64,000 nt of DNA from Bdellovibrionota bacterium (GCA_046328905.1 JAXLVP010000002.1:197499-261498); one strand, 5' to 3'. Shown: positions 79 to 29,134, counted from the first letter of the stretch. Numbers and translations are program-made. Notes: generated from the sequence alone by a model not told the origin.

Positions 79-912
79 CTATATCGGGTTCCCCCAATTA
101 ATCCATGTCGTCTCGTCGTTATGCTGCTCGCCTTTCTGAATTGGGAAGAACTGCAGAAGCCGAGGCTCGTGAATTTTCGGGTCGTACCCGTTTTTTGCAA
201 GCTCTTCCGGGAAATATCCCACGGCACAGGTCGAACGTGTGATGTTGTTTGGCACTTTCTTAACAACGACAGAAAGCTGACCATTGTAGGTCGCAATCGA
301 TGCGTTTCTGCAATCGAAGCCGGCACAGACGAGCTGATTGAGAAGCGTCCACTGATTGTAAAGATTGTGATGTCCGGACACGAATGAGTGAAGAGAAAGC
401 GCCGAGTTCATAAAAGGCACCGTCAAAGCCAGAACCCCGCCCTCACGCAGATCGTCATACACTTTGTCGAGAAACGCCCCCGGATTGCGAATATGCTCCA
501 GCACATGGCTGCACCAGATCGCATCGAACTTCCGGATGAATCTTACGTCCAGGAAGTCCACCTCGATATCCACTTCACGACATGGGAAATCAGGATGATT
601 TTGCCACGGCTTTGCTGGCTCGAGCGCCGCGACATCCTTCCCGAGTGCATCGAAGATGTAGCTCGCCATACCGTCGTTTGTCCCAAGGTCGAGCACAGTC
701 CTGAAATCGTAGTGCTTGATAAGCTTCAGCATCGCGAGATGCGCGTACCAGAGCGGTCGTCGGTATGTTTTTCCGCCGCGCGAGATCGCGAATTCCACGG
801 CGCAAGGCGTCCAGCGGAACGGTGGCAGCGGCCGCACTTCGATTCTCGGTTCGGCTCCCGGTGGATCGGAATATTCCCGCCCGACCTCTCGCGTCATAAA
901 GTCGCCGTTCAT
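79..912 (-). CDS. class I SAM-dependent methyltransferase
   Basis: 277-aa ORF with glycine-rich SAM-binding motif I (VLDLGTNDG) followed by an acidic residue; start overlaps the upstream gene stop by 4 nt (operon coupling). Confidence 0.7.
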   Translation of the reverse strand: MNGDFMTREVGREYSDPPGAEPRIEVRPLPPFRWTPCAVEFAISRGGKTYRRPLWYAHLAMLKLIKHYDFRTVLDLGTNDGMASYIFDALGKDVAALEPAKPWQNHPDFPCREVDIEVDFLDVRFIRKFDAIWCSHVLEHIRNPGAFLDKVYDDLREGGVLALTVPFMNSALSLHSFVSGHHNLYNQWTLLNQLVCAGFDCRNASIATYNGQLSVVVKKVPNNITRSTCAVGYFPEELAKNGYDPKIHEPRLLQFFPIQKGEQHNDETTWINWGNPI

Positions 913-1823
913 TTTCCGATCTCCTCGATAATCAACTTTCTGCTCAAACCATGCGCCTGCCGAAGCTCGGCGTGGCTACCATAAACGTGAACAAATTCAT
1001 CTTTCAGACTGAAGGTCTTTAAAGCACACGTGGCTTTCGTATCCCACGCAATCTGCTTCACTTGCGCGGCCAGCCCACCTACGCAGGAATGTTCTTCGAT
1101 TGTAACGACGAGTGAATGCGTCTTGAGAGCTTTTGCAATTCCCTCTCGGTCGATAGGCTTCATAGTATGGCAGGAGACGAGCGAAACGGATCGTCCCTGC
1201 CCCGCAAGCTCCTTGGCCACATCACCGGCAAGGTCCATGACATGTCCAAAAGCGAGCACGCACACGTCAGTCCCTTTGGTGATGTATCGAATCTTTCCGA
1301 ACTCGAACGGGTCCACCGCTTTGTCCGTAAAGTTCGGCTCTCCCGCCTTTCCAATTCGGAGATACACGGGTCCTGGTGACACCGCACAGTAGCGAATTGC
1401 CTCCGCGAGCTCGAGGGGGTCACACGGAGCAAGAATTGAGATATTCGGGATCGGACTCAGGATACCCACATCCTCTTGCGTAAGGTGCGTACCTCCGAGC
1501 GTCGAATAAATAATTCCCGCGCCCATTCCGACCACCGTGACTGGCAGATTCTGATAGCAGAGGTCGTCGCGAATCATCTCGAACGGACGATAAGCGCTAA
1601 ATGTGGCGATGGTGTAAGCGAATGGTCGAAATCCGCGAAGAGCCATGCCGGCGCACAAACCGATCATACCCTGCTCGGACACCCCAACATCGATGAACTT
1701 CTCCGGGAATTGTTTGCGAAACAGCTCCATGCTTCCGACGGGAGAGATATCAGCGACGACGCAGCAGATATTCGGATCTGCCATCCCCACTTCATAAAGG
1801 GTCTGGGCAAATAGATTTCTCAT
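909..1823 (-). CDS. transketolase, C-terminal (pyrimidine-binding) subunit
   Basis: 304-aa ORF resembling the pyrimidine-binding/C-terminal half of transketolase (IDVGVSEQGMIG, AGMALRGFRPFAYTIATF, VTVVGMGAGI); coupled to the N-terminal subunit gene immediately upstream. Confidence 0.8.
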   Translation of the reverse strand: MRNLFAQTLYEVGMADPNICCVVADISPVGSMELFRKQFPEKFIDVGVSEQGMIGLCAGMALRGFRPFAYTIATFSAYRPFEMIRDDLCYQNLPVTVVGMGAGIIYSTLGGTHLTQEDVGILSPIPNISILAPCDPLELAEAIRYCAVSPGPVYLRIGKAGEPNFTDKAVDPFEFGKIRYITKGTDVCVLAFGHVMDLAGDVAKELAGQGRSVSLVSCHTMKPIDREGIAKALKTHSLVVTIEEHSCVGGLAAQVKQIAWDTKATCALKTFSLKDEFVHVYGSHAELRQAHGLSRKLIIEEIGK

Positions 1824-2641
1824 CGCAGACCTCCTTCGAGCTCGGACAGCGCTTGCTTATATTCTTCGGCGTTCGGGGAACGATAGTGCCAGATCGGCAC
1901 GTTCTCCATGTAGCTTACACCTTTTCCCTTCGTCGTACGGCAAATAACGAACAGGGGCTTCTGACCTTTCCGCGACATAACCGCATCAAACATCGCCGCC
2001 GAATCGTGGCCGTTTTCGATCTCCTTCACTTCCCAACCGAATGCAGCCACTTTGTCGCCAACCGGATAAAATGTCGGATGCAGCTCGCTCGTGCGTCCAA
2101 GCGATTGAAAGTCGTTGAGGTCAAGGAACGCGACGAGATTTGTGATACCAAGCGAAGACGCAATCATCATGCCTTCCCAGGTCGAGCCTTCTTGCAGCTC
2201 GCCGTCGCTCAACACCGCATACACGTTTGCATCTTCATTTCGGATCTTATGTGCGTAGGCAATTCCGGCAGACATCGTCATGCCATGCCCGAGTGATCCG
2301 GTTGACGCCTCAATACCCGGATTCCCGTAGTCAGGGTGAGTCCCGAGAATCCCGTCCGGCTTGCAGTACCGGTCAAGATGCTTCGACTCCAAAACTCCGA
2401 GCTTTTCGAGCGCCATATACTGGGCCAAACATCCATGCCCTTTGGACATGACGAACGTGTCCGGGCTCGTTCCGTCCGGGTTCCGACGCATGAGCGAGAA
2501 GTAGCAAAGCTCGGTAATCTCCATACAGGAGTAGGCCGACGCGATATGGAGGGCCGAGACCGTTTGCGAGATATGGAGAATCCGCTTGCGGAACTCAAGG
2601 CAGCGAGCCTGCGATGCTGCGAGATCGAATTTTTTCGTCAT
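1820..2641 (-). CDS. transketolase, N-terminal (TPP-binding) subunit
   Basis: TPP-binding half of a split transketolase (SKGHGC, SLGHGMTMSAGIAYA, LSDGELQEGSTWE). Start set at ATG 2641, which has a GAGG RBS 7 nt upstream; the track ORF extends to 2680 (TTG). Confidence 0.8.
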   Translation of the reverse strand: MTKKFDLAASQARCLEFRKRILHISQTVSALHIASAYSCMEITELCYFSLMRRNPDGTSPDTFVMSKGHGCLAQYMALEKLGVLESKHLDRYCKPDGILGTHPDYGNPGIEASTGSLGHGMTMSAGIAYAHKIRNEDANVYAVLSDGELQEGSTWEGMMIASSLGITNLVAFLDLNDFQSLGRTSELHPTFYPVGDKVAAFGWEVKEIENGHDSAAMFDAVMSRKGQKPLFVICRTTKGKGVSYMENVPIWHYRSPNAEEYKQALSELEGGLR

Positions 2642-2661
2642 ATGAGCCTCGTCGCGGACCA

Positions 2662-3315
2662 TCAGTTGATGATCGTCCAATAATAATCGCCGGTGTAGCC
2701 GGCTTCATCGAAAATCTTCTTCCAGAAATCCGGATATCCGTGAGTCTTCGCGGTGAGCACCCACTTCGCAAAGATCTCCTCCTCTTCCTTTGTCCGATAG
2801 GAGTCGACCTGAATGAAGCCTTTGCCTGGTGCGATCCGCTGCATCTCCTTGATCGCCTGAATGCAAAGTGGCCGCTCGAGGTTGTGTAGCGTGTTCAGAG
2901 AGATCGCCGCCGTGAAGCTTTTGTCCGGAAAAGGAAGCTTGAGCGCGTTCCCGAGATGGAGGCGGCCGACGACTTCCGGCTCGCAGTGCATGAGCGCGTA
3001 CTCTGATATCTCAATCCCGTAAACTTCCAAGCCTGGACATACCTTCATGAGGTCCTTGACGAGAAAGCCCTTTGCGCAACCGATGTCGAGAACGCGATCG
3101 CCCGGCTTTAGCCCCCAATGCTCGACGAAAGTCTCGGCGACGGGGATCCAACGACCGTCGTAGCGGTAGCCGCCGTAGCCGTGGTTGCGACTCCCATCGA
3201 AGTAATCCTTCCCGTACTGCAATGCGATGCGTTTGTCCTCCTCGGACGCAGCGGCACGCTCGGTGAGGTTCCGTTTCGGCTTCGGAAGTTTGTGCAGGAG
3301 CTCGATCTCAGCCAT
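2662..3315 (-). CDS. class I SAM-dependent methyltransferase
   Basis: Motif I VLDIGCAKGFL; start placed at ATG 3315 (GAGGA RBS), 1 nt after the upstream stop; track ORF extends to 3348. Confidence 0.7.
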   Translation of the reverse strand: MAEIELLHKLPKPKRNLTERAAASEEDKRIALQYGKDYFDGSRNHGYGGYRYDGRWIPVAETFVEHWGLKPGDRVLDIGCAKGFLVKDLMKVCPGLEVYGIEISEYALMHCEPEVVGRLHLGNALKLPFPDKSFTAAISLNTLHNLERPLCIQAIKEMQRIAPGKGFIQVDSYRTKEEEEIFAKWVLTAKTHGYPDFWKKIFDEAGYTGDYYWTIIN

Positions 3316-3316
3316 T

Positions 3317-4189
3317 CTATCCTCGCGCCTTCTTGATACCTTCGCCAAACGGCGTCATGCGAAAAGCCGGAAAATTGCGTAGGAGCTCAGTGATATCAAA
3401 GTGACGGTGCGTTACCGGGCTTTGTCGCGGTTGATTGACAATTTTCACCTCGGTCATCAATCCCTTGATCGAAGCTGCGACTTCACCAAACGAGAGAGCA
3501 CTGCCCGAAGCGGCGTTGACAACTCCAGTCGCCTTACGAGAAACCAGCTCAGTAATGAGAGAGATGAGATCGTCGATGAACAGATGGTCTCGCTGTTCTT
3601 CGCCCTGACCGGTCAATGAGATCTCATTTTTCTCGAGAGCCGTCTTGAGAAAACGATTCGGGCCATAGCTGTTGTGAGTGTCTCCGGCTCCGTATATCGC
3701 GCAGGGACGAACAATGAGCAGGGGCGTTCCCGCCTTTTTGCAGGACTCCGCCAGCATTCTCTCCCGCGCGAGATGCATCACTCCGTGGAAGCTGCTCGGA
3801 TTACAGGCAGAGGTCTCACGCACCGGATGGGCAGCGTCATCGTAGACTGCATCCGAACTAATATAAACGACATGTGCACACGGATGAGCTTCAATAGCTT
3901 CACACACCGCGTCTGCCATCGCCAGATTCTTCAAGAGAGTCTTCCGGTCCCGCCCTTTGTCAGGCGTAAGGGCCGAAATGAAGACCAGGGTGTCTTCTGA
4001 ATTCAGCGCTTCGCCGAGCTTGGTTCCCGCGTCTTCGGAAAGGAGATCAAGGTCCCGAGATGAGAGCGCCTTCGTTGCCCAACCCAGCTCGCGAGTTTTC
4101 GCTTCTAGATTCTTCCCCACGAAACCACGTGAACCGAGTATTACCATTCGCGAAGGTGTCTTTCTTTCTGACGAACTGAGACTCAGCAT
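3317..4189 (-). CDS. NAD(P)-dependent epimerase/dehydratase family (SDR) sugar reductase/epimerase
   Basis: N-terminal Rossmann motif ILGSRGFVGKNL and SDR-like fold; start at ATG 4189 (GGAG RBS) 1 nt after upstream stop. Confidence 0.65.
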   Translation of the reverse strand: MLSLSSSERKTPSRMVILGSRGFVGKNLEAKTRELGWATKALSSRDLDLLSEDAGTKLGEALNSEDTLVFISALTPDKGRDRKTLLKNLAMADAVCEAIEAHPCAHVVYISSDAVYDDAAHPVRETSACNPSSFHGVMHLARERMLAESCKKAGTPLLIVRPCAIYGAGDTHNSYGPNRFLKTALEKNEISLTGQGEEQRDHLFIDDLISLITELVSRKATGVVNAASGSALSFGEVAASIKGLMTEVKIVNQPRQSPVTHRHFDITELLRNFPAFRMTPFGEGIKKARG

Positions 4190-4190
4190 T

Positions 4191-5483
4191 TCATTTCTCC
4201 GTCTTTTTCCCCAAAGTGTGCACGGTAAAGCCTGCCTGATCAAAATCGCGTGAGCTCAACGCGCCGAACGGATCAAGAACCACCCGCCCCTTCATCGCGT
4301 TGGCGACCTCGCCCGCAGGAATCTTCTTGAACTCTGACCACGGGGTTATGAGCACGAGCACGTCCGCTCCTTCACACGCATGGAGAGCGGATTCGGCTTG
4401 CACGACTCGATTCGCCGCGCGTTCACCGAGCTTCACCATCGGGTCATACGCTCGAACACGTTGAGCCTTCAGCGAATCGATCAGCGCAACGGACGGCGAA
4501 TTCTTGATTGAGTGAGTGTCCGGCTTGTAGGCGATTCCCCAGATTCCGATGAGTGGGTCATCTTGCTTTGAAAACACAACTGACGAAAGCTTCCTGAGTA
4601 CCCAGTCTCGTCGATAGACGGCATTGGAAAACCAAGCTTCGATTACCGAGCTATCTGTTCCATGCTCCCGCGCGAGCGACTGCACGGTCACCAGATCTCG
4701 TTCCAAGTTACCGCCCGCGATCCCAAGACCGGGCTGCAGATACGCATGCGGGCCGATTCTTTTATCAAGCCGAAGTGATGGGGCGATCTCGCCCCACTCT
4801 GCCCCTATCTCTTCGCAAAGCTCTGCGAGCGTGCTCGTCGTAATCACTGAGGAAACCAGAAACATGTTGATAGAGATCTTTGCAAGCTCCGCGCTCTCAT
4901 AGCGCATCGGCAGAACAGGACAATCAAAGAGCGAGAGCACCTTCTGATACGCATCCGGGAGCGGAGCCTTCGGGTCCTTGCAACCAACGATGTATCGCTC
5001 CGGGTTGAGCATGCGGCTCATTGCGATACCGAAGACCAGTGTCTCCACCTGGTAATACAGTTGAATGTTCCGATTCTCGCGTTCGACGAGGGCTCCGAGC
5101 GCTCGGGTGAATCCAGGCGACACCTGGCTGTGGATAACCAGCGTCGCGCCGGTTTTGAGCGACGGGAGAATTTTTTCGAAAAGCTCCAATATCGGCGTTG
5201 GGTCGCTGATATTCTTGTCCGAGGTCGGCACGTCGCGAGCAATGTAGAGCACTTCACATCCGCCGAGGTCAGCTTGGTTCGCGGTGAATCGCACTCGGCT
5301 CCCCGCTTCGTGCAAGAGCTCAGACAGATTCTCCTCGAACACAGGCAGCTCGAACCTCGCCAACTTCGCCACGAGCGACGCGTCCGTTTCGAAGCCGAGA
5401 ATGTTCGCACCGCGAGATGCCAGCCCCACGCCGGTTATGAGACCGAGGTGCGAAAGTCCGACAATACCAACGTTCAGGCTCAC
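4191..5483 (-). CDS. nucleotide-sugar 6-dehydrogenase (UDP-glucose/GDP-mannose dehydrogenase family)
   Basis: 430 aa; N-terminal NAD-binding VGIVGLSHLGL and C-terminal GIAYKPDTHSIKNSPS...YDP motif typical of this family. Confidence 0.8.
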   Translation of the reverse strand: MSLNVGIVGLSHLGLITGVGLASRGANILGFETDASLVAKLARFELPVFEENLSELLHEAGSRVRFTANQADLGGCEVLYIARDVPTSDKNISDPTPILELFEKILPSLKTGATLVIHSQVSPGFTRALGALVERENRNIQLYYQVETLVFGIAMSRMLNPERYIVGCKDPKAPLPDAYQKVLSLFDCPVLPMRYESAELAKISINMFLVSSVITTSTLAELCEEIGAEWGEIAPSLRLDKRIGPHAYLQPGLGIAGGNLERDLVTVQSLAREHGTDSSVIEAWFSNAVYRRDWVLRKLSSVVFSKQDDPLIGIWGIAYKPDTHSIKNSPSVALIDSLKAQRVRAYDPMVKLGERAANRVVQAESALHACEGADVLVLITPWSEFKKIPAGEVANAMKGRVVLDPFGALSSRDFDQAGFTVHTLGKKTEK

Positions 5484-6394
5484 TTCCCCTCCTCATACAG
5501 CTTGCGCAGCGTCCTGTTGATCCAAAGGTCGTTGTCGAGATTCGTACCGCCGCGTTTCGCATGCTCAACAAAATATTCGTATTCGAGCTTCCACGTGGGG
5601 TCGGCACACTCGAGCGTATCGGATGCTTCAGTCGGACGTCCGGATGGCAGAACCCGCTTGCGAACAGTGATCGTGCTCGGCCCCCATTTACACAGGCAGT
5701 TGACATGAAGCGATCCGGCATCTCCGATCACATCCAGCCGAAATGTGTTTCTCCACGACAGCAACGTCGCCTCGAGCTGGATGCGCGGCATCTCAGCTTG
5801 CGAGCCGAAAACAACGTGGTCATACGAATTATTTTCCAGCCGGTAGTAACTGAACGGCTTGAGGTCCGTTCGGTGCTCACCAAGCAAGAAATCGGTTGTA
5901 TCAAGCAGGTGAGAACCGAGGTCCGCCAGCACACCCATTCCTTTGTCTCGCCAGACAGAGTTACGAACTTCACGCGCCGTCCCGTTTCCGTAGAACATCT
6001 CGAGGGAAAGAACCTTCCCAATCTCCCCCGCCGTTATAATTTCGCGGGCGCGGACGAGAAACGGCTCGAAGCGATGGTTGTATGCGGTGTAACAAAACAC
6101 CCGCCGCTTCGCGGCCAGATCGCGAAGGCGCTCGATATCCCGGTCGTCCTCGCTCACGAGCGGTTTTTCGACTAGGACGTGCTTCCCGTTATCGAGGAGG
6201 TAGGAAAGAATCTCGATCTTTGCTTCGTCCGGAGTGCACACCAATGCCGCGTCATACGATTCGAGTGGAACGTCTTGCACTCGCGTAAACTGGGCGTCCG
6301 GCTTTACAGGATCAACCGTCGCAACAAGATCGCTGCCGGCGAACTTGCTGCGTTTCGCACCTTGAATCCCGAGCCCGGCGACGATGACTCTCAT
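5480..6394 (-). CDS. Gfo/Idh/MocA family NAD(P)-dependent oxidoreductase
   Basis: N-terminal Rossmann fold with the VLVEKPL (EKP) signature; translationally coupled on both sides. Confidence 0.75.
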   Translation of the reverse strand: MRVIVAGLGIQGAKRSKFAGSDLVATVDPVKPDAQFTRVQDVPLESYDAALVCTPDEAKIEILSYLLDNGKHVLVEKPLVSEDDRDIERLRDLAAKRRVFCYTAYNHRFEPFLVRAREIITAGEIGKVLSLEMFYGNGTAREVRNSVWRDKGMGVLADLGSHLLDTTDFLLGEHRTDLKPFSYYRLENNSYDHVVFGSQAEMPRIQLEATLLSWRNTFRLDVIGDAGSLHVNCLCKWGPSTITVRKRVLPSGRPTEASDTLECADPTWKLEYEYFVEHAKRGGTNLDNDLWINRTLRKLYEEGK

Positions 6395-7977
6395 CGGAGC
6401 AGGACTTTGCTGATCAGGTTCTTCGACATCTCGGTCATCTGCTCAACCGACTGGAGCTTCGCGATAACGTCATCCGGTGTTACGGGGTGATTTCCGTCTC
6501 TTTCACACGCGACCGCGGCTGCGGCCGAGCCGATGATTGTCGCGATAACCGCCGACTTGCTAGTGTAAAGAGAAAGAGAAGAATAGGAGAGCATCGCATC
6601 GCCCGCGCCGACAGCATCGACGACGTGGTCAACGAAGCTATCGACAATAAAAAACGCTGAGACCTCTTCCGGACTTCGATACGTGAGCACGCCTCGTTCG
6701 CCCATCGTCATCATCAGACATTTGCACTTCGCGCGCGTGAACAGCTCGCGGGCGAGCGGGCGTACGACTGAGTCCTGATCTCCGAGAGCGAAACGAACCT
6801 CGCGCTCGTTCGGCGTGATCAGATCACATCCTTGAAACTCGACGATGTTCCCCCATCGGCTGGCAACTTGGCTATCCGCAACCTTGAAGGTCCCCTCCGG
6901 CACCGCTTCGAGGAATGCCGGGATGGTGTTCCGATTGAAAATTCCGTGACGAAAATCTGAGAACACGACGATGTCGGCCGGAGTATTGACAATCGAGTCG
7001 AGCAGCTGAGCGCGAATACGTTCGGAGATGATCCGATTGTCGACCTTTCCAACTCGAAGGAGATGGTAGCCGCTTGCAAGAAAAGAGTTCTTCTGGGTGG
7101 TCGGGCGTGTTTTGTCGATGACAGCGTGATTGTGAATGCCCGATTCTTTCAGTTCCGACGCGACAAAGTCTTTCAGCGCATCATCGCCCATGACCGTCGA
7201 AAAGGTGACATCCGCGCCCGCTTTTTTGATGTGACGCGACACGACCGCTGCACCGCCTGCAAAGTCCACTTGACGGTCGAACTGCACCGTCATTGTCGGC
7301 GTTTTCACGGCGCCACCCTGCATGCGGCAATACGTGTAGGAATCTACAATCGTGTCGCCGATCACATGCACTTTCACGTCTTTGAATTTGTCGAGTGTTG
7401 AATAGAGGTCTTGGAACGTAATATTCTCGGACTCCATCAGGAGCACGAGCTTCGCCGCTCCCAAGCGAGGGGAGAATGCTTCCGAGTCCGAGCTCGTCGT
7501 ATACTCGGCATCCCCTGGGGTGAAGAGAACTTCGCCGCCGTAAGCCTCTACCGCTGTGACGTCTTCGCGCGCCTTCGCAGGACTGCCGCTCTCGAAATAA
7601 TCAAATCCTTTCGCGAAATAGTCCGGCTGAAGAATGCGGATATTGTCGAGCGGCTGCTCATTTCGATCGATGATGACGTAGTCTACAAACTCTAGCGCAG
7701 CGAGGTTTACCGCGCGAACATCTTCCGGAACCGAAGGTCGCAAGCTCGATCGTTCGATGTACTTGTCTGAGACGAGCGTCGCCACGAGAATATTGGCGCG
7801 CTCCTTCGCGTACATCAGATGGCGAAGATGGCCGGGATGCACGATATCGAACGAGCCGTGACACATCACGACGGACTTCGTCCGCGGATGCGGACCGACG
7901 AGGTCTCGCACCTCCTCCACCGTACGTATCTTGCGGCGGAAATCCTCCGCTTTGTGCTGCTTCTTCGCCTTCATCAT
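6391..7977 (-). CDS. bifunctional cytidylyltransferase-like nucleotidyltransferase / PfkB-family sugar kinase (HldE-like, reversed domain order)
   Basis: N-terminal CHGSFDIVHPGHL (HxGH nucleotidyltransferase motif); C-terminal PfkB kinase (VHVIGDTIVD ... DAVGAGDAM). Confidence 0.7.
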   Translation of the reverse strand: MMKAKKQHKAEDFRRKIRTVEEVRDLVGPHPRTKSVVMCHGSFDIVHPGHLRHLMYAKERANILVATLVSDKYIERSSLRPSVPEDVRAVNLAALEFVDYVIIDRNEQPLDNIRILQPDYFAKGFDYFESGSPAKAREDVTAVEAYGGEVLFTPGDAEYTTSSDSEAFSPRLGAAKLVLLMESENITFQDLYSTLDKFKDVKVHVIGDTIVDSYTYCRMQGGAVKTPTMTVQFDRQVDFAGGAAVVSRHIKKAGADVTFSTVMGDDALKDFVASELKESGIHNHAVIDKTRPTTQKNSFLASGYHLLRVGKVDNRIISERIRAQLLDSIVNTPADIVVFSDFRHGIFNRNTIPAFLEAVPEGTFKVADSQVASRWGNIVEFQGCDLITPNEREVRFALGDQDSVVRPLARELFTRAKCKCLMMTMGERGVLTYRSPEEVSAFFIVDSFVDHVVDAVGAGDAMLSYSSLSLYTSKSAVIATIIGSAAAAVACERDGNHPVTPDDVIAKLQSVEQMTEMSKNLISKVLLR

Positions 7978-8020
7978 CTCCTTGACCGAGGTCTGTGCGC
8001 ACTCCGACGCACTCCTCCGA

Positions 8021-9022
8021 TTAGGTCAATCCGATCTTCTTGATCATCTTCACGTTGAAGTAATGCGGGTCATCGAAGCTGTTCGGGAGCTTCCCGGCTT
8101 TGAACGCTTTACACAGTCCGCGAACGGCATCTTCGATACTGTATTTGGGCTCGAAGCCAAGCACTCGGGCTATTTTCGCCGACGAAACGTGGTATGACCG
8201 AAGGTCGTCGGACTCGGTGGTCACGATTTCAATCGGAGCGAGCTCCGGCATCTCTTCTTCCACGACGTTCTTCACGATAACGGCAAGATCGGCGAGCGTT
8301 CGGTTCTGGAATCCGGCATTGAATGTCTCACCCTGAATCTGTGCCGCCGGTGTCTCGAGCAAGCTCACGTAGAGATCGGTAATATCTTCGATATGAATAT
8401 TCGGCCGCTTCTGAGGTCCGCCGAACACGGTGATCTTGCGTTTATTCACGGCGTGATTCGTAAGAATATTCACCGAAAGGTCGAGACGAGTCCGGGGAGA
8501 GTAACCGCAAATAGTCGCAGGACGGATTACGACACAAACAAAGTCATCAGACTTGTGCTTCAGAAGAAGCGGCTCAGTCAGTCCTTTGTACTTATTGTAA
8601 TCAGTGATCGGCACCAAGGGATGCTCTTCGGTGACTTCCGGCGCATCGCTCACGCCGTAAACGGAGCTCGTCGAGGCGTAGATGAAGCGTTCTACACCCG
8701 CTTCCTTCGTAGCAACGACCATCGGCTCGAAGCAGTCGTAGTTGATAGCCTTGCTCAATCCGTCGTTCAGCTCGAAGCTGGGATCGTTCGAGATACAGGC
8801 GAGGTGGATGATCGAGTCGCAACCGGCAATCGATTTCGCGAAATACGGAGTATCGCGGATGTCGCCTTTGATAACTTTCAGATTTTGATGTTTCGGAATG
8901 CCCTGTTCGCCGTAGAGCATGAGGTCGTAAATCCGAACCTTATGTCCCAATGCGAGGAGCTTCGGAACAAGAACAGAGCCCACATAGCCCGCGCCGCCAG
9001 TTACAAATATTTCACGTTGCAT
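8021..9022 (-). CDS. NAD-dependent epimerase/dehydratase (extended SDR, UDP-sugar 4-epimerase-like)
   Basis: GGAGYVGS Rossmann motif and YNKYK (YxxxK) catalytic motif. Confidence 0.8.
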   Translation of the reverse strand: MQREIFVTGGAGYVGSVLVPKLLALGHKVRIYDLMLYGEQGIPKHQNLKVIKGDIRDTPYFAKSIAGCDSIIHLACISNDPSFELNDGLSKAINYDCFEPMVVATKEAGVERFIYASTSSVYGVSDAPEVTEEHPLVPITDYNKYKGLTEPLLLKHKSDDFVCVVIRPATICGYSPRTRLDLSVNILTNHAVNKRKITVFGGPQKRPNIHIEDITDLYVSLLETPAAQIQGETFNAGFQNRTLADLAVIVKNVVEEEMPELAPIEIVTTESDDLRSYHVSSAKIARVLGFEPKYSIEDAVRGLCKAFKAGKLPNSFDDPHYFNVKMIKKIGLT

Positions 9023-9192: not shown

Positions 9193-10569
9193 ATGTCATT
9201 TTCAGCCTCCTTCCTCCGTGAAGCGATGCAAATCGCCGACCAACTCGACGAGAGCGCTATCGAACGAGCTGTGCAGGTTCTCCGCCGGACACGAGACAAT
9301 CAGGGAAGGCTGTTTCTGATCGGATCTGGAGGCGGAGCCGGTCATGCATCGCATGCTACCTGCGATTTCCGGAAGCTCTGCAGCATGGAGGCCTACTGCC
9401 CCACCGATAACGTCTCAGAGCTGACCGCCCGAATCAACGACGAAGGATGGGATTCCTCCCTGGCAAACTGGCTCAAAACTTCTCGGTTAAATGGAAAAGA
9501 TTGCCTTTTTGTCTTTTCCGTTGGTGGCGGAAGCGAAGACAAGAACATCTCCGTGAATCTCGTCAACGCTATGAAGGCGGCGAAAGAGGTCGGCGCATCA
9601 ATCGTCGGCGTTGTCGGCCGAGATGGTGGATTTACAGCCAAAGTAGCGGATGCTGCGATAGTGGTGCCAACGGTCGATGCTTCCCGGGTCACTCCTCACA
9701 CAGAAGCCTTCCAAGCGCTCGTTTGGCATTTGATTGTCTCTCATCCGGCTCTCCAAACCGGCACGGCAAAATGGGAAGGAACACAGTCATTTGCCTCAAA
9801 GTCCGGACAAAAGGCGACTTCGATTCACCAGCTGCACGTGAAGGTGTTCGCCGACGGCGCGGAGCTCGCGGGAATGCTTGAAATGTATCGCAACCCCCTC
9901 ATCGCCGGCTTCACGACGAACCCGACGTTGATGAAGAAGGCCGGCATTGTGGACTACGCTGCCTTCGGCAAAGATGTTCTAACGCTCATAAAAGACAAGC
10001 CGATCTCATTCGAGGTGTTCTCCGACGACTTTGCGGAGATGGAAGCACAGGCGCTTACCATCGCTTCTTGGGGCGAGAACGTATATGTGAAGATCCCTAT
10101 CACCAACACCCGTGGTGAATCAGCAGTGCCGCTCGTGAAGCGACTCACCGCTGCTGGAGTCAAAGTAAACGTCACAGCGATTATGACCTTGGAGCAGATC
10201 GAAGAGGTCCTGCCGGCCTTAAAAAATACCGCGGGCGCATACGTCTCCGTGTTCGCGGGTCGAATAGCCGACACCGGCCGCGACCCACTACCGATGATGA
10301 AAGCCACGATGAAAATGCTCGCGGAGCATCCAGCCGTCGAGCTCATCTGGGCGAGCCCCCGTGAGCTGCTAAACATTTTCCAGGCGAACGAGATTGGCTG
10401 CCACGTCATCACGGTAACGAATGACGTCCTGAAGAAGCTCACGCTCGTCGGTAAGGATCTTTCCGAGTATTCGCTCGAGACTGTCCAGATGTTTCGGAAT
10501 GATGCTGTTTCGGCGGGATTTTCGCTTGAAGTGGATTCTGATGGAAAGGAGAGTCAGATAGCGGCGTGA
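9193..10569 (+). CDS. fusion protein: SIS-domain sugar-phosphate isomerase (GmhA-like) + transaldolase/fructose-6-phosphate aldolase-like domain
   Basis: N-terminal SIS motifs (LFLIGSGGGAGHASH; FVFSVGGGSEDKN ... VVGRDGG); C-terminal TalC/FSA-like motifs (GFTTNPTL, Schiff-base-type YVKIP, SVFAGRIAD). Confidence 0.75.
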   Translation: MSFSASFLREAMQIADQLDESAIERAVQVLRRTRDNQGRLFLIGSGGGAGHASHATCDFRKLCSMEAYCPTDNVSELTARINDEGWDSSLANWLKTSRLNGKDCLFVFSVGGGSEDKNISVNLVNAMKAAKEVGASIVGVVGRDGGFTAKVADAAIVVPTVDASRVTPHTEAFQALVWHLIVSHPALQTGTAKWEGTQSFASKSGQKATSIHQLHVKVFADGAELAGMLEMYRNPLIAGFTTNPTLMKKAGIVDYAAFGKDVLTLIKDKPISFEVFSDDFAEMEAQALTIASWGENVYVKIPITNTRGESAVPLVKRLTAAGVKVNVTAIMTLEQIEEVLPALKNTAGAYVSVFAGRIADTGRDPLPMMKATMKMLAEHPAVELIWASPRELLNIFQANEIGCHVITVTNDVLKKLTLVGKDLSEYSLETVQMFRNDAVSAGFSLEVDSDGKESQIAA

Positions 10570-19476: not shown

Positions 19477-20265
19477 TCAATGTCCTTCCGTCTCGCGACC
19501 AGTCACTGTTCGAAACCGGCCGGAGGCGATATCCTGCTCGGCCCGTGCGATTCGATCGGGAGTGTCGATTCCAAGCTGATAAAATTTCGCCCCATCTACT
19601 GGAAACGCAAATATTTTTTTTGAAGAAGCGAGCACCTTCGGGAAAACATCCCGTGGAAGGTCGACGACAGGCGACCCTTCGTCCTTGGGGGAAACGAAGC
19701 TCAGTATCTCGGGAGAAAAAGCGTATACGCTTGAACTCACCCATTGCGAGACTATTTCGGAGTCAGTTTGAGGTCGTTCGACGAACCGGAGTATCTTTTT
19801 CGTCGACTCATCGAACAGAATCACTCCTGATTTTTTCAGCTGGTCGCGAGGGCGGAAGTAGCAGCACAAAGTAGCGATGCCTTCGCTCACCCTGTGCGCT
19901 TCAGCGACAGCTCGCAGATCGAAGTTCACCAGCATATCGGCGGACAACACAAAAAAAGGCTCGGAGAGAGCCATCGCCGCAGCAACCTTGCGCATCCCTC
20001 CTGCCGTACCGGTCAGCTCGTGCTCATCAACATACTCAAGCTTTAGACCAAAGCGAGATCCACCCCCAAAGTACGTTTTGATCTTCTCGGCGTGGTAGCT
20101 TACGTTCACGCCGATATGGTCGACGCCATGCGAGGCAAGAAGCTCGATACCATATTGCATCAGCGGCTTCCCGCTTATCGGAATGAGGGGCTTCGGCTGA
20201 TGATCGGTCAATGACCCCATCCGTTCACCCCGGCCGGCTGCAAGCAATATTGCTTTTCGGATCAT
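19477..20265 (-). CDS. sugar-phosphate nucleotidyltransferase (RmlA/HddC/mannose-1-P guanylyltransferase-like)
   Basis: N-terminal LLAAGRGERMGSLTDHQPKPL signature of NTP-transferase family; about 260 aa. Confidence 0.75.
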   Translation of the reverse strand: MIRKAILLAAGRGERMGSLTDHQPKPLIPISGKPLMQYGIELLASHGVDHIGVNVSYHAEKIKTYFGGGSRFGLKLEYVDEHELTGTAGGMRKVAAAMALSEPFFVLSADMLVNFDLRAVAEAHRVSEGIATLCCYFRPRDQLKKSGVILFDESTKKILRFVERPQTDSEIVSQWVSSSVYAFSPEILSFVSPKDEGSPVVDLPRDVFPKVLASSKKIFAFPVDGAKFYQLGIDTPDRIARAEQDIASGRFRTVTGRETEGH

Positions 20266-20840
20266 AAGACTGGCGCCGCGAGCAGTGGAATAAGCTCGGA
20301 AAAGCTTGTGATAGTGTTATCCGGTGTTATTCGGTGGAGAGAAAGGTACAAGTCCTGCGCCTGTCGCGGGTCGTAGAGCACGGTTCTTACACCGGCTGAC
20401 TCTCCAGCCTTAATATCCGAAGCACGATCTCCGACAATCAACGAAGAAGCAAGGTCAATATTCAGCTCATCGGCCGCATCAATCAACATTCCGGGTTTTG
20501 GCTTCCGGCACTCACATGAACCACTCAAGCCGCGGACAGTCCCTCTCTCGTGATGATAGCAGTAGCGAACGGCATCGAAAGATATTCCTTGGGTCTCGAG
20601 AAGGCGAACGAACGCCTGCTCTATCTCCATCCGAGTTTCAACTGTCACTTTGCCAAGTGCGACATCAGGCTGATTCGATACGACAACAAGAAGGTAGCCT
20701 GCACGACGTGCAGATTGTAGGACTTCAACGATGCCGGAGACGATCCGGAGTGAATCTGGCGAGCGAACAGCCTCACCGTCGATGTCGTGAACGATCACCC
20801 CATCCCGATCCAAAAAAAGTGCCGGGCGTGCGGTCTTCAT
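20262..20840 (-). CDS. HAD-IIIA family phosphatase (GmhB / histidinol-phosphatase-like)
   Basis: LFLDRDGVI motif I, VVSNQ motif II, CxCRKPKPGM and GDRASD motifs typical of heptose-bisphosphate phosphatase-like enzymes. Confidence 0.7.
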   Translation of the reverse strand: MKTARPALFLDRDGVIVHDIDGEAVRSPDSLRIVSGIVEVLQSARRAGYLLVVVSNQPDVALGKVTVETRMEIEQAFVRLLETQGISFDAVRYCYHHERGTVRGLSGSCECRKPKPGMLIDAADELNIDLASSLIVGDRASDIKAGESAGVRTVLYDPRQAQDLYLSLHRITPDNTITSFSELIPLLAAPVL

Positions 20841-20846
20841 GACGAA

Positions 20847-21962
20847 TCACGAAGCAAGCTTTTCGACAACACCCATCGCCTGCTCGATGGTGTCGTCGAT
20901 ATCAATACCGTACCGGTAGGCACCGGCACGACCTATCGAGAAGACGTTGTCAGGCATCATCGCGAAATACTTATCCGCTTTCGCCTGCTCGAACTTCGTC
21001 GGGAAAGGATAGTGCTTTCCGTTGTCTGACGGAATCTCCATACCGATCAATGTGGTCGGCGACTTGTGATGAGTGAATTTTTTGTACTCGACGAGCCGAG
21101 TGAATTTCTCGTTGTTCGCATAGTAGAGAAAGTAAACGTTCTCCGGGAAGCTGTGCTCCACTGGAAGCACGAACGTGTGCAGGTCACGACCAAGGTAGAA
21201 GAGCTCACCGTGACAATGTTCGAAAAGGATGTCGGGTGAAATCGTGTTGATAATGACATCGAACGTTTTTTTCTCGCCCTTGATTACGACAGTCTTATTC
21301 GGAATGTCGTAATGTTCAATCTTCGTTGAGAGCAGTACTTTCGCCTGAGCAGTGCTGATGTCGAAGTATTTATTGTAGCCGTCTTCCGCGTAGGGATACG
21401 CAGAAATCGCTGTATCCCACGCAGCCCGAGGACCCTCTTTGAGCGCTACCCCTTTCGGCGACCAACTGAACGTGTCGAGGATCTTGTTATCATCGATCTG
21501 CCACATCTTCTTGCTGTACTGATTGATGTACTTGTCATACAGCGTCTGACCAACAGATCCGACCCAATAATCTTCGATGTTTTGGGCGTTCGCAACACCC
21601 TTCACGGTTCTGAGCTCTTCCTTGATCTTATCACAGTCCGGCATCCGCTCGATGTCGTCAACGTGGATCGGGAAGTTGTAAAATGCGTTGTCACGTTCGA
21701 CGTAGGTCAGAAATTGGTGGTCGGCACAAAGACGAAGCGGGCAGAAATGGTTGAGAAAGTCGTAGACGCGTCTGTTCTGCGTCAAAAAGTGTCGCGGCCC
21801 GAACGTGTAGGGGTGCCCGCCGAACCAAAAGGTCCGGACGCCCGCACCGAGGAACGGCCCTGCCTCGACGATAGTTACGTCCCAATTTTTCCCTTGAAGC
21901 GCCAACTGATGTGCGCTCGTGCAGCCGGCAAATCCGCCACCAATAATCAGAACTTTTTTCAT
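20847..21962 (-). CDS. UDP-galactopyranose mutase-like FAD-dependent enzyme (pyranose-furanose mutase family)
   Basis: Start at ATG 21962 (MKKVLIIGGGFAG, GGAGG RBS); GPRHF...VYDF and C-terminal GRAGAYRY motifs resemble UGM; the first 46 codons of the track ORF were discarded. Confidence 0.65.
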   Translation of the reverse strand: MKKVLIIGGGFAGCTSAHQLALQGKNWDVTIVEAGPFLGAGVRTFWFGGHPYTFGPRHFLTQNRRVYDFLNHFCPLRLCADHQFLTYVERDNAFYNFPIHVDDIERMPDCDKIKEELRTVKGVANAQNIEDYWVGSVGQTLYDKYINQYSKKMWQIDDNKILDTFSWSPKGVALKEGPRAAWDTAISAYPYAEDGYNKYFDISTAQAKVLLSTKIEHYDIPNKTVVIKGEKKTFDVIINTISPDILFEHCHGELFYLGRDLHTFVLPVEHSFPENVYFLYYANNEKFTRLVEYKKFTHHKSPTTLIGMEIPSDNGKHYPFPTKFEQAKADKYFAMMPDNVFSIGRAGAYRYGIDIDDTIEQAMGVVEKLAS

Positions 21963-21987
21963 GCCACCTCCCAAAATCCGCTGCGCG

Positions 21988-22758
21988 CTAAACCTTGCAC
22001 GTAATGAATGACATACCGAAGCCGCCGATGGGCAGAAACTGAGCAAACGTGAATTCGCTCCGCTCTTGCAGCTCTTTGAAAGCCTTTCCCACCCCGGCAA
22101 ACGGCGAGCCTTTGTATCCGACGTGATAGTCGTCGATATAAATCAATGTTCCCGGCTGCAAAAACGGCTCAATGAATTTGAACACCGGAACAGCGCTTTC
22201 GTAGAGGTCGCAATCAACACAAATCATGCTGGCTCGAACACCCCGTTCGAAGAGCTCGGACTGCAACTGCGAGGTAAGGCTCTTTTGATAAAAACCTTTG
22301 TACGTGTGAATTTTGTCGGTGTAAACACCCAGGCTCGTCACCAGACGACGGAATTCTTCTTCGCTGGTAGCGAGCGCGCCGGGCGTGTAGTCCGACACTG
22401 ACACTTCGTCTTCGTTTTCGATGACCGGCAAACCCTCGAAGCTATCGAAGGCGTGGAACTTCATGAAATGCATGTTCTGCCGCCGCGCTTCGCTCACCGC
22501 CATCCGAAAGGTTCTCGCGCGGTGACACCCGAACTCCATGTAGTCCCCAACAATTTCGTTCGCGTAGAGCGAATCAAACGCCTGGATGTAAAAATTGCGT
22601 TTCGTTGTTTGGCGACGCAGCTGGTTGTAAGCAATCTGCTCTTTCTCACCCCAGTTCTCGAGCTCGGCTGCAGTTCCGAGCTCAACCCACGGTTCGCCCT
22701 GGATTCCTCTTGCGGCAAACTCTTCGACCGGAACGCGTTTGTCGGATCTCATCGTCAT
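21988..22758 (-). CDS. TylF/MycF-type SAM-dependent O-methyltransferase
   Basis: IVGDYMEFGCHRARTF and ICVDCDLYES motifs typical of macrocin-O-methyltransferase-like sugar O-methyltransferases. Confidence 0.65.
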   Translation of the reverse strand: MTMRSDKRVPVEEFAARGIQGEPWVELGTAAELENWGEKEQIAYNQLRRQTTKRNFYIQAFDSLYANEIVGDYMEFGCHRARTFRMAVSEARRQNMHFMKFHAFDSFEGLPVIENEDEVSVSDYTPGALATSEEEFRRLVTSLGVYTDKIHTYKGFYQKSLTSQLQSELFERGVRASMICVDCDLYESAVPVFKFIEPFLQPGTLIYIDDYHVGYKGSPFAGVGKAFKELQERSEFTFAQFLPIGGFGMSFITCKV

Positions 22759-26598: not shown

Positions 26599-26600
26599 GC

Positions 26601-27830: not shown

Positions 27831-27849
27831 TTGCTGACAGGAGCGGGCT

Positions 27850-28674: not shown

Positions 28675-29128
28675 TACAGCTTCAGCTCGAAACGTCCTTC
28701 AGGGCTATGTCGTGAACGTCGCGTTCGGCAATTTGCGCGTCCCGGCGCCGATGCAAAACCTCATGTTGCGTGACTACGCGGCGAAGAATAACCTGATGTT
28801 CAAGCTCTCTGTCGGCGAATACTCGTTCCCGGGGTGTTACCTCCAGCTTGAAGGGTTGTATCCCCTCCTTCGGACCATTGAAGGGATTGGGATGTGCAGC
28901 ATGTTCATGCTTCCCAAGCATGAAGAGCGACGACGTCTTGTCTACCAGAAATGTATCGAGGCTGGTGCTGCGATCCACCTACTCCTCGAGAAGGTCGTCA
29001 TCCGTGATTGGACGACCGTAGAGCGCGTCGAGGATGTGCTGCGGTTTCATCGGGCGATTGCACAGAGCCCGACGACGATTCCGACGGAGCTGTTGCCGAA
29101 ACTGCCAGTCCCTGATTGTTTCACCTGA
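28667..29128 (+). CDS. hypothetical protein (operon member, unknown function)
   Basis: 153-aa ORF whose start overlaps the upstream stop; no recognisable motif. Confidence 0.4.
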   Translation: MSSTASARNVLQGYVVNVAFGNLRVPAPMQNLMLRDYAAKNNLMFKLSVGEYSFPGCYLQLEGLYPLLRTIEGIGMCSMFMLPKHEERRRLVYQKCIEAGAAIHLLLEKVVIRDWTTVERVEDVLRFHRAIAQSPTTIPTELLPKLPVPDCFT

Positions 29129-29134
29129 GGAAGT

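Follow-up and report, generated by a model that had tools for sequence, protein, structure and literature searches.

HldE (RfaE), the bifunctional D-beta-D-heptose-7-phosphate kinase/D-beta-D-heptose-1-phosphate adenylyltransferase, serves the synthesis of the Gram-negative LPS core, and occurs in Burkholderia in a split form, HldA plus HldC. NDP-heptose synthesis is an antibiotic target, and it also yields ADP-heptose, an agonist of innate immunity. The stretch of 64,000 nucleotides analysed here (the window), from an uncultured Bdellovibrionota MAG, encodes a protein that contains both kinds of domain in the reverse order. The locus raises the question of whether this protein is real, how it is related to HldE, and which sugar it might activate.

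Domain order and integrity of the fusion protein

The open reading frame at 6391-7977 on the minus strand begins with ATG, encodes 528 residues, and has no internal stop. Pfam assigned CTP_transf_like (PF01467) to residues 39-147 (E = 1.3e-12; 48.5 bits, cut-off 21) and PfkB (PF00294) to residues 202-496 (E = 9.5e-24; 84.7 bits, cut-off 25.8). The NCBIfam models rfaE_dom_II and rfaE_dom_I matched residues 32-162 (82.3 bits, E = 2.8e-23) and 195-508 (157.2 bits, E = 5.1e-46), respectively. The fusion is thus a heptose-type sugar kinase placed behind, not ahead of, its partner nucleotidyltransferase, which is the reverse of HldE. Canonical HldE gives an identical Pfam domain listing; the order was therefore compared using phmmer domain coordinates instead. 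The nucleotidyltransferase preceded the kinase in every one of the 128 proteins with both domains among the 150 best representatives of the family, whereas the kinase came first in 6/6 verified HldE proteins. These results confirm the reversed architecture proposed in the earlier note, and the reversed-order proteins were found in at least 569 species genomes of many phyla. The HxGH, STT-type, NxxE, and GAGD motifs are intact in the fusion, and invariant or nearly so across the family. Judged from these sequences, the nucleotidyltransferase-kinase fusion is a large and common family with its own lineage, not an isolated oddity.

That a sequencing or assembly error joined two neighbouring genes is extremely improbable, and nothing was found in favour of it. 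The reading frame is single and uninterrupted, and the linker between the domains is itself conserved. Homologues are collinear with the product over 92-100% of its length (58-72% identity), full-length collinear homologues number in the hundreds and stem from independent assemblies, and the same single protein is encoded at 80/80 genome loci. An identical fusion protein is also present on an independent contig. The artefact was rejected on these grounds. The features of the fusion and of its neighbours are listed in Table 1.

Table 1. Features of the fusion protein and of the surrounding cassette in the window.
Feature	Position	Strand	Basis
Whole gene, bifunctional nucleotidyltransferase-kinase fusion	6391..7977	-	528 aa; ORF, Pfam/NCBIfam, homologue alignment
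HldC-like nucleotidyltransferase domain, aa ~13-165, including N-terminal helix common to BpHldC	7483..7941	-	rfaE_dom_II 82 bits; BpHldC 69 bits
HxGH motif H47-P-G-H50, nucleotide-binding signature	7828..7839	-	invariant in family alignment
STT-type motif E-Y-T-T-S-S, aa 158-163; family V-[YF]-S-S-S	7489..7506	-	alignment; motif defined in PMC11461863
Linker helix, aa ~166-194, family-specific, conserved	7396..7482	-	invariant columns K176, L177, L180, S183, E184, F188, L191
HldA-like PfkB kinase domain, aa ~195-510	6448..7395	-	rfaE_dom_I 157 bits; HldA 4e84 best sequence and fold match
Kinase lid motif V-K-T-P-T, aa 224-228	7294..7308	-	Lys in place of Glu of the HldE/HldA S-P-E-A-P lid
PfkB NxxE motif T-P-N-E-R-E-V, aa 388-394	6796..6816	-	family alignment
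PfkB catalytic/anion-hole motif D-A-V-G-A-G-D-A, aa 454-461	6595..6618	-	family alignment
GFO/IDH/MocA oxidoreductase	5480..6394	-	start overlaps fusion stop by 4 nt; 53/54 loci
NDP-sugar-dehydrogenase-like, Asn for catalytic Cys (GGNLERD)	4191..5483	-	52/54 loci
SDR, RmlD/epimerase-like, cassette member	3317..4243	-	47/54 loci
SAM-dependent methyltransferase, cassette member	2662..3348	-	45/54 loci
Split transketolase: N-terminal subunit 1820-2680, C-terminal subunit 909-1823	909..2680	-	26-27/54 loci
SDR epimerase/dehydratase upstream of fusion, first gene of minus-strand operon	8021..9022	-	53/54 loci
GmhA-like SIS isomerase (aa ~10-170) and short transaldolase (aa ~212-445) fusion, divergent	9193..10569	+	SIS 40/54, transaldolase 42/54 loci
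GmhB-like HAD phosphatase	20262..20840	-	HAD in 40/54 loci, usually between SIS and transaldolase

Relationship to HldE, HldA, and HldC

Both halves resemble the RfaE/HldE domains II and I, and the BpHldC and HldA structures, more than TagD or the ribokinases, in agreement with the earlier note. BpHldC (5x9q) aligned to positions 8-162 of the family-alignment profile. In the PDB sequence search, the nucleotidyltransferase domain matched HldC with 69 bits and the rival type with 35 bits; among the HMMs, rfaE_dom_II scored 82 bits and the TagD-type models 29. HldA (4e84) was the best fold match of the kinase domain, with E = 5e-25; the next kinases reached 1e-18, a gap of about six orders of magnitude. 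Foldseek gave TM-scores of about 0.8 to HldA, PfkB-2, and ribokinases, a PfkB fold with the NxxE and GAGD motifs. The structure model is of moderate quality (pLDDT 74, 13 sequences); it served for the fold search only, and the inter-domain geometry was not drawn from it.

The domains might instead use unrelated or non-heptose substrates, with the nucleotidyltransferase forming a CDP-polyol as TagD does and the kinase acting on another sugar or a nucleoside. All curated equivalog scores are sub-threshold, and the nucleotidyltransferase domain has weak matches to glycerol-3-phosphate cytidylyltransferase, ethanolamine-phosphate cytidylyltransferase, and the cytidylyltransferase domain of Fom1. 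However, the HldC and HldA matches given above are clearly the best, the conserved partners are of the GmhA-like and GmhB-like types, and the neighbourhood has no conserved gene for glycerol phosphate or ribitol phosphate. This explanation is very unlikely, and the idea in the earlier note of a polyol phosphate (glycerol-3-phosphate or ribitol-5-phosphate) is not supported, given the TagD scores and the partners.

The scores are far below the cut-offs for HldE itself, for which the equivalog models are NCBIfam NF008454, TIGR02198, and TIGR02199. The kinase domain reached 157 bits against the rfaE_dom_I cut-off of 345, and the nucleotidyltransferase domain 82 against the rfaE_dom_II cut-off of 181.5. 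The whole-protein model NF008454 gave 155.8 bits (cut-off 521), in two non-collinear stretches. In neighbour-joining trees of both domains, the reversed proteins were separate from, and opposite to, HldE/HldA/HldC. A fusion lineage of its own would give such a pattern, and the trees agree with the independent fusion event suggested in the earlier note. The linker is also distinctive. The HldC match stops at family profile position 162 and the HldA match begins at 193; no counterpart of the linker helix was found in HldA and HldC. In this region, the predicted model of the fusion has helices at 174-183 and 188-200.

Several motif and sugar-contact residues are different. Of the reversed proteins, 15/15 of the tight set and 90/107 of the broad set keep HPGH. 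Position 5 of the STT-type motif is aromatic (Tyr/Phe), where the 'STTR5' enzymes carry Arg. Three of the five heptose-1-phosphate contacts of BpHldC, which are a proposal from docking, are replaced in the family (N30 to H, N59 to T, and K100 to A/P), by residues that are either family-invariant or variable. In the kinase lid of the cassette orthologues, the four residues after Val are conserved as K (64/64), T (63/64), P (64/64), and T (64/64). Glu stands at this lid position in 7/7 canonical proteins and in 81/102 of the broad reversed set; the change to Lys is specific to the cassette-linked subfamily. The lid change and the differences at N30, N59, and K100 hint at altered substrate recognition. 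Together with the sub-cut-off scores, they make a substrate other than that of HldE plausible, which was the other part of the substrate proposal in the earlier note.

The conserved operon and its carriers

Partner genes were counted at 54 genome loci with full flanks. Many ORF clusters at these loci looked conserved but were shadow ORFs antisense to high-GC genes, and they were left out. The close subfamily (about 55-70% identical) is found in a rigid operon of 11-12 genes: a GmhA-like SIS protein, a GmhB-like HAD protein, a transaldolase, two SDRs, the fusion, and GFO/IDH/MocA, followed by a Cys-less NDP-sugar-dehydrogenase-like protein, another SDR, a methyltransferase, and a split transketolase or an E1-like pair. 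The split transketolase and the E1-type pair never co-occurred at the examined loci. GFO is the near-invariable downstream partner, beginning at most 150 nt from the fusion end in 76/78 loci. The catalytic Cys of the dehydrogenase-like protein is missing from 59/59 orthologues; the protein is therefore no ordinary 6-dehydrogenase. In the window, which contains no tRNAs, the tailoring genes overlap one another.

Across the 54 loci, the SIS, HAD, and transaldolase genes share the strand of the fusion at fixed offsets, with all three present in 34/54 loci. The PDB matches of the SIS domain were exclusively phosphoheptose isomerases, and the best models of the HAD protein were GmhB. Neither protein reached its equivalog cut-off (49 against 209 bits for the GmhA-like, 133 against 178 for the GmhB-like). 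In the window, the HAD gene is 12 kb away from the cassette and is co-transcribed with an NTP_transferase gene (19477-20265). Both genes, noted earlier, are real, and the HAD is the conserved partner and likely the third pathway enzyme; the NTP_transferase accompanies the fusion in 2/54 loci only, and was rejected as a functional partner. A DegT gene occurs at 20/54 loci; that of the window lies at 26601-27830. Among the loci examined, no glycosyltransferase, which would name the acceptor, was conserved with the cassette; this suggests a precursor-supply module. The TPR-GT41, TPR-GT61, TIGR04372-GT, and TPR proteins near the cassettes are lineage-specific.

The close subfamily is scattered over phyla at 52-60% identity, a pattern suggestive of lateral spread. 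The carriers include MAGs labelled Bacillota and Bipolaricaulota, and these phyla are typically without LPS. The cassette is also present in the culturable Azospirillum, Bradyrhizobium, Tardiphaga, and Skermanella, so that the identity of its sugar is directly testable. A distant reversed-order subfamily (29% identity) adjoins a GT2 and MsbA-like ABC transporters, outside the cassette; an SIS-NTP_transferase-HAD set likewise adjoins a distant reversed-order subfamily. In Bradyrhizobium, a separate rfaE lies near rfaL (PMC4743980), and the bradyrhizose O-antigen depends on a sugar operon of 11 genes that includes 'gdh' (Busset et al. 2016). A link of that operon to the cassette was considered; the gene-specific parts of the Busset gdh primers, and the peptides that they encode, were absent from the loci examined, none of which is from photosynthetic Bradyrhizobium.

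Candidate pathways and comparison with known systems

Domain identities, domain order, intact motifs, family size, and operon conservation were observed directly. The substrates, the nucleotide used, the reaction order, and the final product of the pathway are what we infer from them. Four activities make up the NDP-heptose route, those of an isomerase, an anomeric kinase, a 7-phosphatase-type HAD, and a nucleotidyltransferase (PMC11461863). The co-occurrence of SIS, HAD, kinase, and nucleotidyltransferase matches exactly these four, and supports a heptose-type pathway. On balance, the fusion would catalyze steps 2 and 4 of a dedicated ADP-heptose-type nucleotide-sugar pathway, which feeds the tailoring cassette and not the LPS core. 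The transaldolase and transketolase of the operon would supply a ketose phosphate, most simply sedoheptulose-7-phosphate, which the GmhA-like SIS enzyme might convert to an aldose omega-phosphate. The C-terminal PfkB domain would phosphorylate the anomeric O1, and the GmhB-like HAD would remove the distal phosphate. The N-terminal HldC-like domain would then transfer NMP from NTP to the sugar-1-phosphate, yielding an NDP-heptose. This would not be the end product, but would pass to the co-transcribed SDRs, GFO/IDH/MocA, Cys-less dehydrogenase-like protein, methyltransferase, and ThDP enzyme. The tailored product would be a modified higher-carbon sugar, which the variable lineage-specific glycosyltransferases might place on a surface glycan. 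More generally, the operon probably supplies bacterial surface glycans with a modified sugar of 7 to 10 carbons.

The same fusion could be simply a domain-swapped, isofunctional ADP-heptose synthase that supplies the LPS inner-core heptose. Relatives bear the source annotation 'ADP-heptose synthase' or 'rfaE bifunctional protein', the fusion keeps all its catalytic motifs, and the distant subfamily next to GT2 and MsbA-like transporters could be housekeeping. However, the close subfamily is almost never without the tailoring genes, has no conserved heptosyltransferase-like neighbour, scores far under the HldE cut-offs, and shows the sporadic distribution described above. Its carriers in typically LPS-less phyla and the separate rfaE of Bradyrhizobium also argue against a housekeeping LPS-core role, which we consider unlikely. 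Several observations count against the heptose as substrate: the pathway proteins are all far under the equivalog cut-offs, the subfamily has the lid Lys and the three replaced contacts, sedoheptulose-7-phosphate can be obtained without a dedicated transaldolase, and the dehydrogenase-like/GFO pair is a signature of the octose-tailoring steps of the lincosamides.

By analogy with lincomycin biosynthesis, the two steps might act on an eight-carbon sugar, a possible but doubtful alternative. The transaldolase would make octulose-8-phosphate from ribose-5-phosphate and a C3 donor, SIS would convert it to octose-8-phosphate, and the fusion kinase and nucleotidyltransferase, with the HAD, would give NDP-octose. 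The PfkB kinase and HldC-type nucleotidyltransferase would stand in for the GHMP kinase LmbP and the NTP_transferase LmbO; SDR, the dehydrogenase-like/GFO pair, and sometimes DegT would act as LmbM, LmbL/LmbZ, and LmbS do on GDP-octose. LmbL and LmbZ are reportedly a joint 6,8-dehydratase (Wang et al. 2020, PNAS). The enzyme types match the transaldolase LmbR, isomerase LmbN, phosphatase LmbK, epimerase LmbM, nucleotide-sugar dehydrogenase family LmbL/CcbL, oxidoreductase LmbZ/CcbZ, and aminotransferase LmbS (PMC12945683, PMC4351081). The closest homologues outside the lincosamide clusters are acidobacterial for CcbZ, CcbK, and CcbO, and myxobacterial for CcbN and CcbP (PMC4351081), and both phyla carry the cassette. 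The dedicated transaldolase, joined to the SIS domain in the window, the missing Cys, the subfamily-specific lid Lys, and DegT are also consistent with an octose. The dehydrogenase-like and GFO genes are present in 52-53/54 loci and lie next to each other; CcbL is of the nucleotide-sugar dehydrogenase family. However, likeness to LmbZ, LmbL, LmbR, and LmbN was judged by enzyme family from descriptions, and such a match could be convergent recruitment of common enzyme types. The kinase and nucleotidyltransferase families are unlike LmbP and LmbO, and transaldolase plus transketolase would equally suit a raised supply of sedoheptulose-7-phosphate.

A broader proposal, which we regard as tentative, is that a widespread pathway, so far unrecognised, might begin with the fusion and lead to a nucleotide-activated C8 to C10 sugar. 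Species from the environment and from plants, hundreds of them at least, would have this pathway. The transaldolase-built octose (or heptose) would be activated by the fusion, and the Cys-less dehydrogenase-like protein would oxidise it to the carbonyl stage only. The transketolase/E1-type ThDP enzyme would lengthen or branch it by two carbons, and other enzymes would reduce and methylate it. If so, the cassette would be an environmental relative, and possibly an evolutionary source, of the lincosamine octose pathway.

The literature was searched for reversed HldE, for HldA substrate-contact residues, and for octose pathways outside the lincosamides; nothing relevant was found, nor was a characterised member of the nucleotidyltransferase-kinase family. 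With an octose as substrate, the pathway would be the first to an octose nucleotide from outside antibiotic clusters, within the reach of this search. With a heptose, the family would still add to the NDP-heptose producers a new class, of possible importance for ALPK1-type sensing. One subfamily of a common architecture is tied to a rigid operon, and this operon includes unusual enzymes: a Cys-less homologue of UDP-glucose dehydrogenase, a transaldolase of its own, and a transketolase or E1-like pair.

Among known systems, the lincosamide GDP-octose pathway is like the cassette in having a dedicated transaldolase, SIS isomerase, anomeric kinase, HAD phosphatase, and nucleotidyltransferase. The tailoring enzymes also come from the same families (SDR epimerase, nucleotide-sugar-dehydrogenase-like protein, GFO-type oxidoreductase, and optional DegT). 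The cassette differs in that PfkB replaces the GHMP-type kinase and a cytidylyltransferase-like, HldC-type enzyme replaces the NTP_transferase, both fused. It also has the methyltransferase and ThDP enzyme pair, and lies outside any antibiotic-cluster context.

The HENases were classified by Tang et al. 2024 (Science 385:678), according to two commentaries, as mono-domain nucleotidyltransferase, di-domain kinase/nucleotidyltransferase, and tri-domain isomerase/kinase/nucleotidyltransferase. As in the fusion, an HldC-type nucleotidyltransferase with an (F/L)xxGxSTT-type motif is joined to a heptose-type kinase; the nucleotidyltransferase/kinase order, common as it is, is absent from the classes as these commentaries describe them. 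Arg at position 5 of this motif is tied to CTP/UTP promiscuity (PMC11461863), whereas the fusion family has Tyr or Phe there.

HldE, and HldA plus HldC of Burkholderia, have two domain families in common with the fusion, and the same catalytic motifs; the partners of HldE, a GmhA-like isomerase and a GmhB-like phosphatase, are also similar. However, the identity to HldE/HldA is just about 21% for the kinase and about 32% for the nucleotidyltransferase, and the scores are less than half of the HldE equivalog cut-offs. The fusion also differs in its reversed order, the family-specific linker helix, the lid Lys, the aromatic position 5, and the changed heptose-1-phosphate contacts. HldE is found in the LPS-core locus, whereas the fusion is part of a tailoring operon.

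Domain order and conservation of the fusion

The fusion gene is a single unbroken ORF with an ATG start, which encodes 528 amino acids. In Pfam, aa 39-147 match a cytidylyltransferase-like domain (E = 1.3e-12) and aa 202-496 a PfkB kinase domain (E = 9.5e-24). In the domain-level HMM check with NCBIfam, rfaE_dom_II matched the N-terminal half (aa 32-162, 82 bits) and rfaE_dom_I matched the C-terminal half (aa 195-508, 157 bits); the ribokinase, 1-phosphofructokinase, and TagD-type models scored ≤50 bits, far below the rfaE models. The nearest solved structures are Burkholderia HldA (4e84) for the kinase half and 5x9q, which is the B. pseudomallei HldC (paper on the BpHldC enzyme), for the nucleotidyltransferase (NT) half. 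HldA was also the top fold match of the AlphaFold model (pLDDT 74) in Foldseek, with E = 5e-25 versus 1e-18 for other PfkB kinases. An earlier note had described an HldE-like enzyme in reversed domain order. The Pfam, NCBIfam, and structure matches bear this out, with an HldC-like domain first and an HldA-like domain second.

Homologues with 58-72% identity to the fusion cover 92-100% of its length in one collinear alignment. A 13-sequence alignment across several phyla has a mean column identity of 73% and retains the inter-domain helix at aa ~170-192. Given these collinear homologues and the conserved helix, the chance that a sequencing or assembly artefact produced the fusion is negligible. 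Run exhaustively against 1.84 billion cluster representatives, phmmer returned 15,775 matches, 907 of them at E ≤ 1e-30. The precomputed Pfam listing does not reflect N-to-C order (PF01467,PF00294 is given for canonical HldE too), so the domain order was taken from explicit domain coordinates. Among the best 150 representatives, 128 contain both domains, all in the NT-kinase order (128/128); the remaining 22 are single-domain fragments, and the kinase-NT order was found in none by this test. The verified enterobacterial HldE proteins all have the kinase first (6/6). With one genome per species scanned, relatives occur in at least 569 genomes. Among the carriers are Verrucomicrobiota, Acidobacteriota, Planctomycetes, Myxococcota, Nitrospirae, Elusimicrobia, Omnitrophota, Chlamydiia, and numerous Alphaproteobacteria; some are cultured, such as strains of Bradyrhizobium, Azospirillum, Skermanella, and Tardiphaga.

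The gene cassette and its surroundings

The fusion lies second in a densely packed operon with several 4-nt start/stop overlaps (Table). The same cassette was found in an acidobacterial MAG, an Oligoflexia MAG, the contig of a close relative, and Azospirillum sp. TSO22-1. Partners were counted at 54 genome loci with full 10-kb flanks: GFO/IDH/MocA oxidoreductase (53), upstream SDR of the 8021 type (53), NDP-sugar-dehydrogenase-like protein (52), second SDR of the 3317 type (47), methyltransferase (45), transaldolase (42), GmhA-like SIS isomerase (40), GmhB-like HAD phosphatase (40), transketolase pair (26-27), DegT aminotransferase (20), and NTP_transferase of the 19477 type (2). SIS, transaldolase, and HAD occur jointly in 34/54. 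Gene order and strand hardly vary: SIS, HAD, transaldolase, SDR, SDR, fusion, GFO, NDP-dehydrogenase-like, SDR, methyltransferase, transketolase. The GFO gene starts ≤150 nt from the end of the fusion in 76/78 loci. The cassette has no conserved glycosyltransferase; the transferases that flank it are specific to particular lineages.

The operon and other features noted in the window
Position	Strand	Feature	Remarks
79-9022	-	Operon: SDR, fusion, GFO/IDH/MocA, NDP-sugar-dehydrogenase-like, SDR, methyltransferase, split transketolase, methyltransferase	
909-2680	-	Split transketolase	
4191-5483	-	UDP-glucose/GDP-mannose-dehydrogenase family	GGNLERD versus GGsCfpKD
6391-7977	-	Fusion	
9193-10569	+	GmhA-like SIS + short transaldolase fusion	Divergent from operon; transaldolase part TIGR02134-type, 351 bits
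13379-16392		803-aa PEP-utilising/PPDK-like protein and adjoining APS kinase	NCBIfam PRK05849 'hypothetical protein', 970 bits
17942-19744	-	600-aa ORF	C-terminal TIGR04372-family glycosyltransferase domain
19477-22758	-	Sub-operon: NTP_transferase, GmhB-like HAD, UDP-galactopyranose-mutase-like flavoenzyme, TylF-type methyltransferase	
24287-30300	+	Second sugar-modification block: radical SAM/SPASM, unknown 383-aa protein, DegT aminotransferase, 2OG-Fe(II) oxygenase, two small unknown proteins, formyltransferase	Oxygenase: TIGR04324 'sporadic carbohydrate cluster', 319 bits
33032-33907	-	Second GmhA-like SIS protein, 291 aa	Beside UDP-GlcNAc 2-epimerase and GT4

The NDP-sugar-dehydrogenase-like protein is a non-canonical member of its family: where UDP-glucose dehydrogenases have the catalytic Cys (GGsCfpKD), it has Asn (GGNLERD), and this Asn is present in all orthologues (59/59). 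The usual mechanism of four-electron oxidation to a uronic acid is therefore not available to it. The split transketolase shares its cassette slot with a pyruvate-dehydrogenase-E1-type alpha/beta pair found at other loci. The transketolase-type pair (22 loci) and the E1-type ThDP pair (17 loci) never occur together, which suggests alternative ThDP-dependent two-carbon transfers on a pathway intermediate.

An SDR of ~330 aa (Polysacc_synt_2/GDP_Man_Dehyd-like) lies directly upstream of the fusion in about 78/85 loci, including the closest relative. The window has no such gene at 7978-8020, where the fusion and the following SDR (8021-9022) are only 43 nt apart, and no NUDIX gene, which 18 loci carry. 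In most loci SIS and transaldolase are separate genes with HAD in between; they form one gene in only 3/54 loci, and also in the window and in its closest relative.

In the contig of the closest relative, the four genes of the mutase sub-operon come immediately after the cassette. With a mutase adjoining a heptose-type phosphatase, the sugar might take a furanose form. The Oligoflexia MAG has the PPDK-like and APS kinase pair, a sulfotransferase, a CysQ-like phosphatase, and an NTP_transferase beside the cassette; this neighbourhood hints at glycan sulfation. The TIGR04372-family ORF has homologues in only 4/80 loci. The start as listed reaches 268 nt into the NTP_transferase gene, and the true start is therefore probably further downstream. 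The ~120-aa N-terminal extension of the second SIS protein has no family match.

Relation to HldE and residue-level features

Against the window protein, the tight family (the close subfamily linked to the cassette) scored 241-408 bits for the kinase half and 120-187 bits for the NT half. The corresponding scores were 87-176 and 41-104 bits for the other reversed-order proteins, and 35-51 and 44-50 bits for HldE; HldA scored 69 bits against the kinase half and HldC 48 bits against the NT half. NJ trees built per domain group the canonical sequences in one clan, with every reversed-order protein on the opposite side. On average, the tight family shares 21% (kinase) and 32% (NT) identity with the canonical set. 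The topology fits one old, separate fusion lineage, as judged with a narrow canonical set (Enterobacterales and Burkholderia only) and trees without outgroup. No curated NCBIfam model was found whose cut-off the family reaches, and source records give it unspecific names ('PfkB family carbohydrate kinase', 'ADP-heptose synthase', 'rfaE bifunctional'). By its sequence, the fusion appears clearly HldE-related in chemistry, yet outside HldE by curated criteria. Reversed-order proteins of ~30% identity occur in other contexts (L086, L088), with GT2, ABC exporters, and secretin, or in an SDR-fusion-SIS-NTP_transferase-HAD set. These distant contexts imply that the reversed architecture serves more than one pathway.

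HxGH (HPGH), NxxE, and GAGD are kept throughout the reversed-order family. Arg at position 5 of the (F/L)xxGxSTT motif in HldC-type enzymes has been associated with promiscuity toward CTP/UTP (PMC11461863). In the reversed proteins this position is Tyr or Phe, and S-S-[ST] comes next; this residue cannot predict the nucleotide used. The kinase lid is S-P-E-A-P in HldE/HldA (Glu 7/7), S-x-E-[DA]-P in most other reversed proteins (Glu 81/102), and K-T-P-T in the tight family (Lys in 64/64 cassette orthologues). Five heptose-1-P contacts were proposed in BpHldC by docking (BpHldC paper). The cassette orthologues retain K69 and K116, and replace N30 by His (64/64), N59 by Thr (63/64), and K100 by Ala/Pro. 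These lid and contact-residue differences are compatible with altered sugar recognition.

The window fusion is the sole exception among the 64 orthologues at two NT-domain sites that are invariant in all others, Val69 (others Thr) and Arg76 (others Lys), which align with the proposed substrate contacts Asn59 and Lys69 of BpHldC.

Proposed function and comparison with known pathways

The NDP-heptose route comprises exactly four activities: isomerase, kinase acting at the anomeric position, phosphatase removing the distal phosphate, and HldC-type NT (PMC11461863). For the SIS and HAD partners, the only matches are to proteins of the GmhA and GmhB types. On the basis of this set and these partners, the fusion is proposed for steps 2 and 4: the kinase half would phosphorylate the sugar at the anomeric position (step 2), and the HldC-like half would transfer the nucleotidyl group (step 4). 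A heptose substrate in such a route seems somewhat probable; unrelated substrates such as polyol phosphates seem very improbable. The tailoring genes are almost always present, so the product is most likely an intermediate toward a modified sugar rather than LPS-core heptose; a housekeeping enzyme isofunctional with HldE is unlikely.

The principal rival substrate is an octose, which we regard as possible though doubtful. The cassette types mirror the lincosamide GDP-octose pathway, with the LmbR transaldolase, LmbN isomerase, and LmbK phosphatase, and the tailoring types mirror the LmbM epimerase, LmbL nucleotide-sugar-dehydrogenase family, LmbZ/CcbZ oxidoreductase, and LmbS aminotransferase (PMC4351081, PMC12945683). 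The nearest non-lincosamide homologues of several Ccb enzymes are from Acidobacteria or Myxobacteria (PMC4351081), and a dedicated transaldolase would fit octulose-8-phosphate better than the abundant sedoheptulose-7-phosphate. This likeness is an analogy at the enzyme-family level.

Literature searches found no paper on an NT-kinase-order enzyme or on the cassette operon. Two commentaries on Tang et al. 2024 (one of them PMC11461863) give only the NT, kinase/NT, and isomerase/kinase/NT types. HldE has the kinase first and the adenylyltransferase second, whereas the fusion has the NT first and the kinase second.
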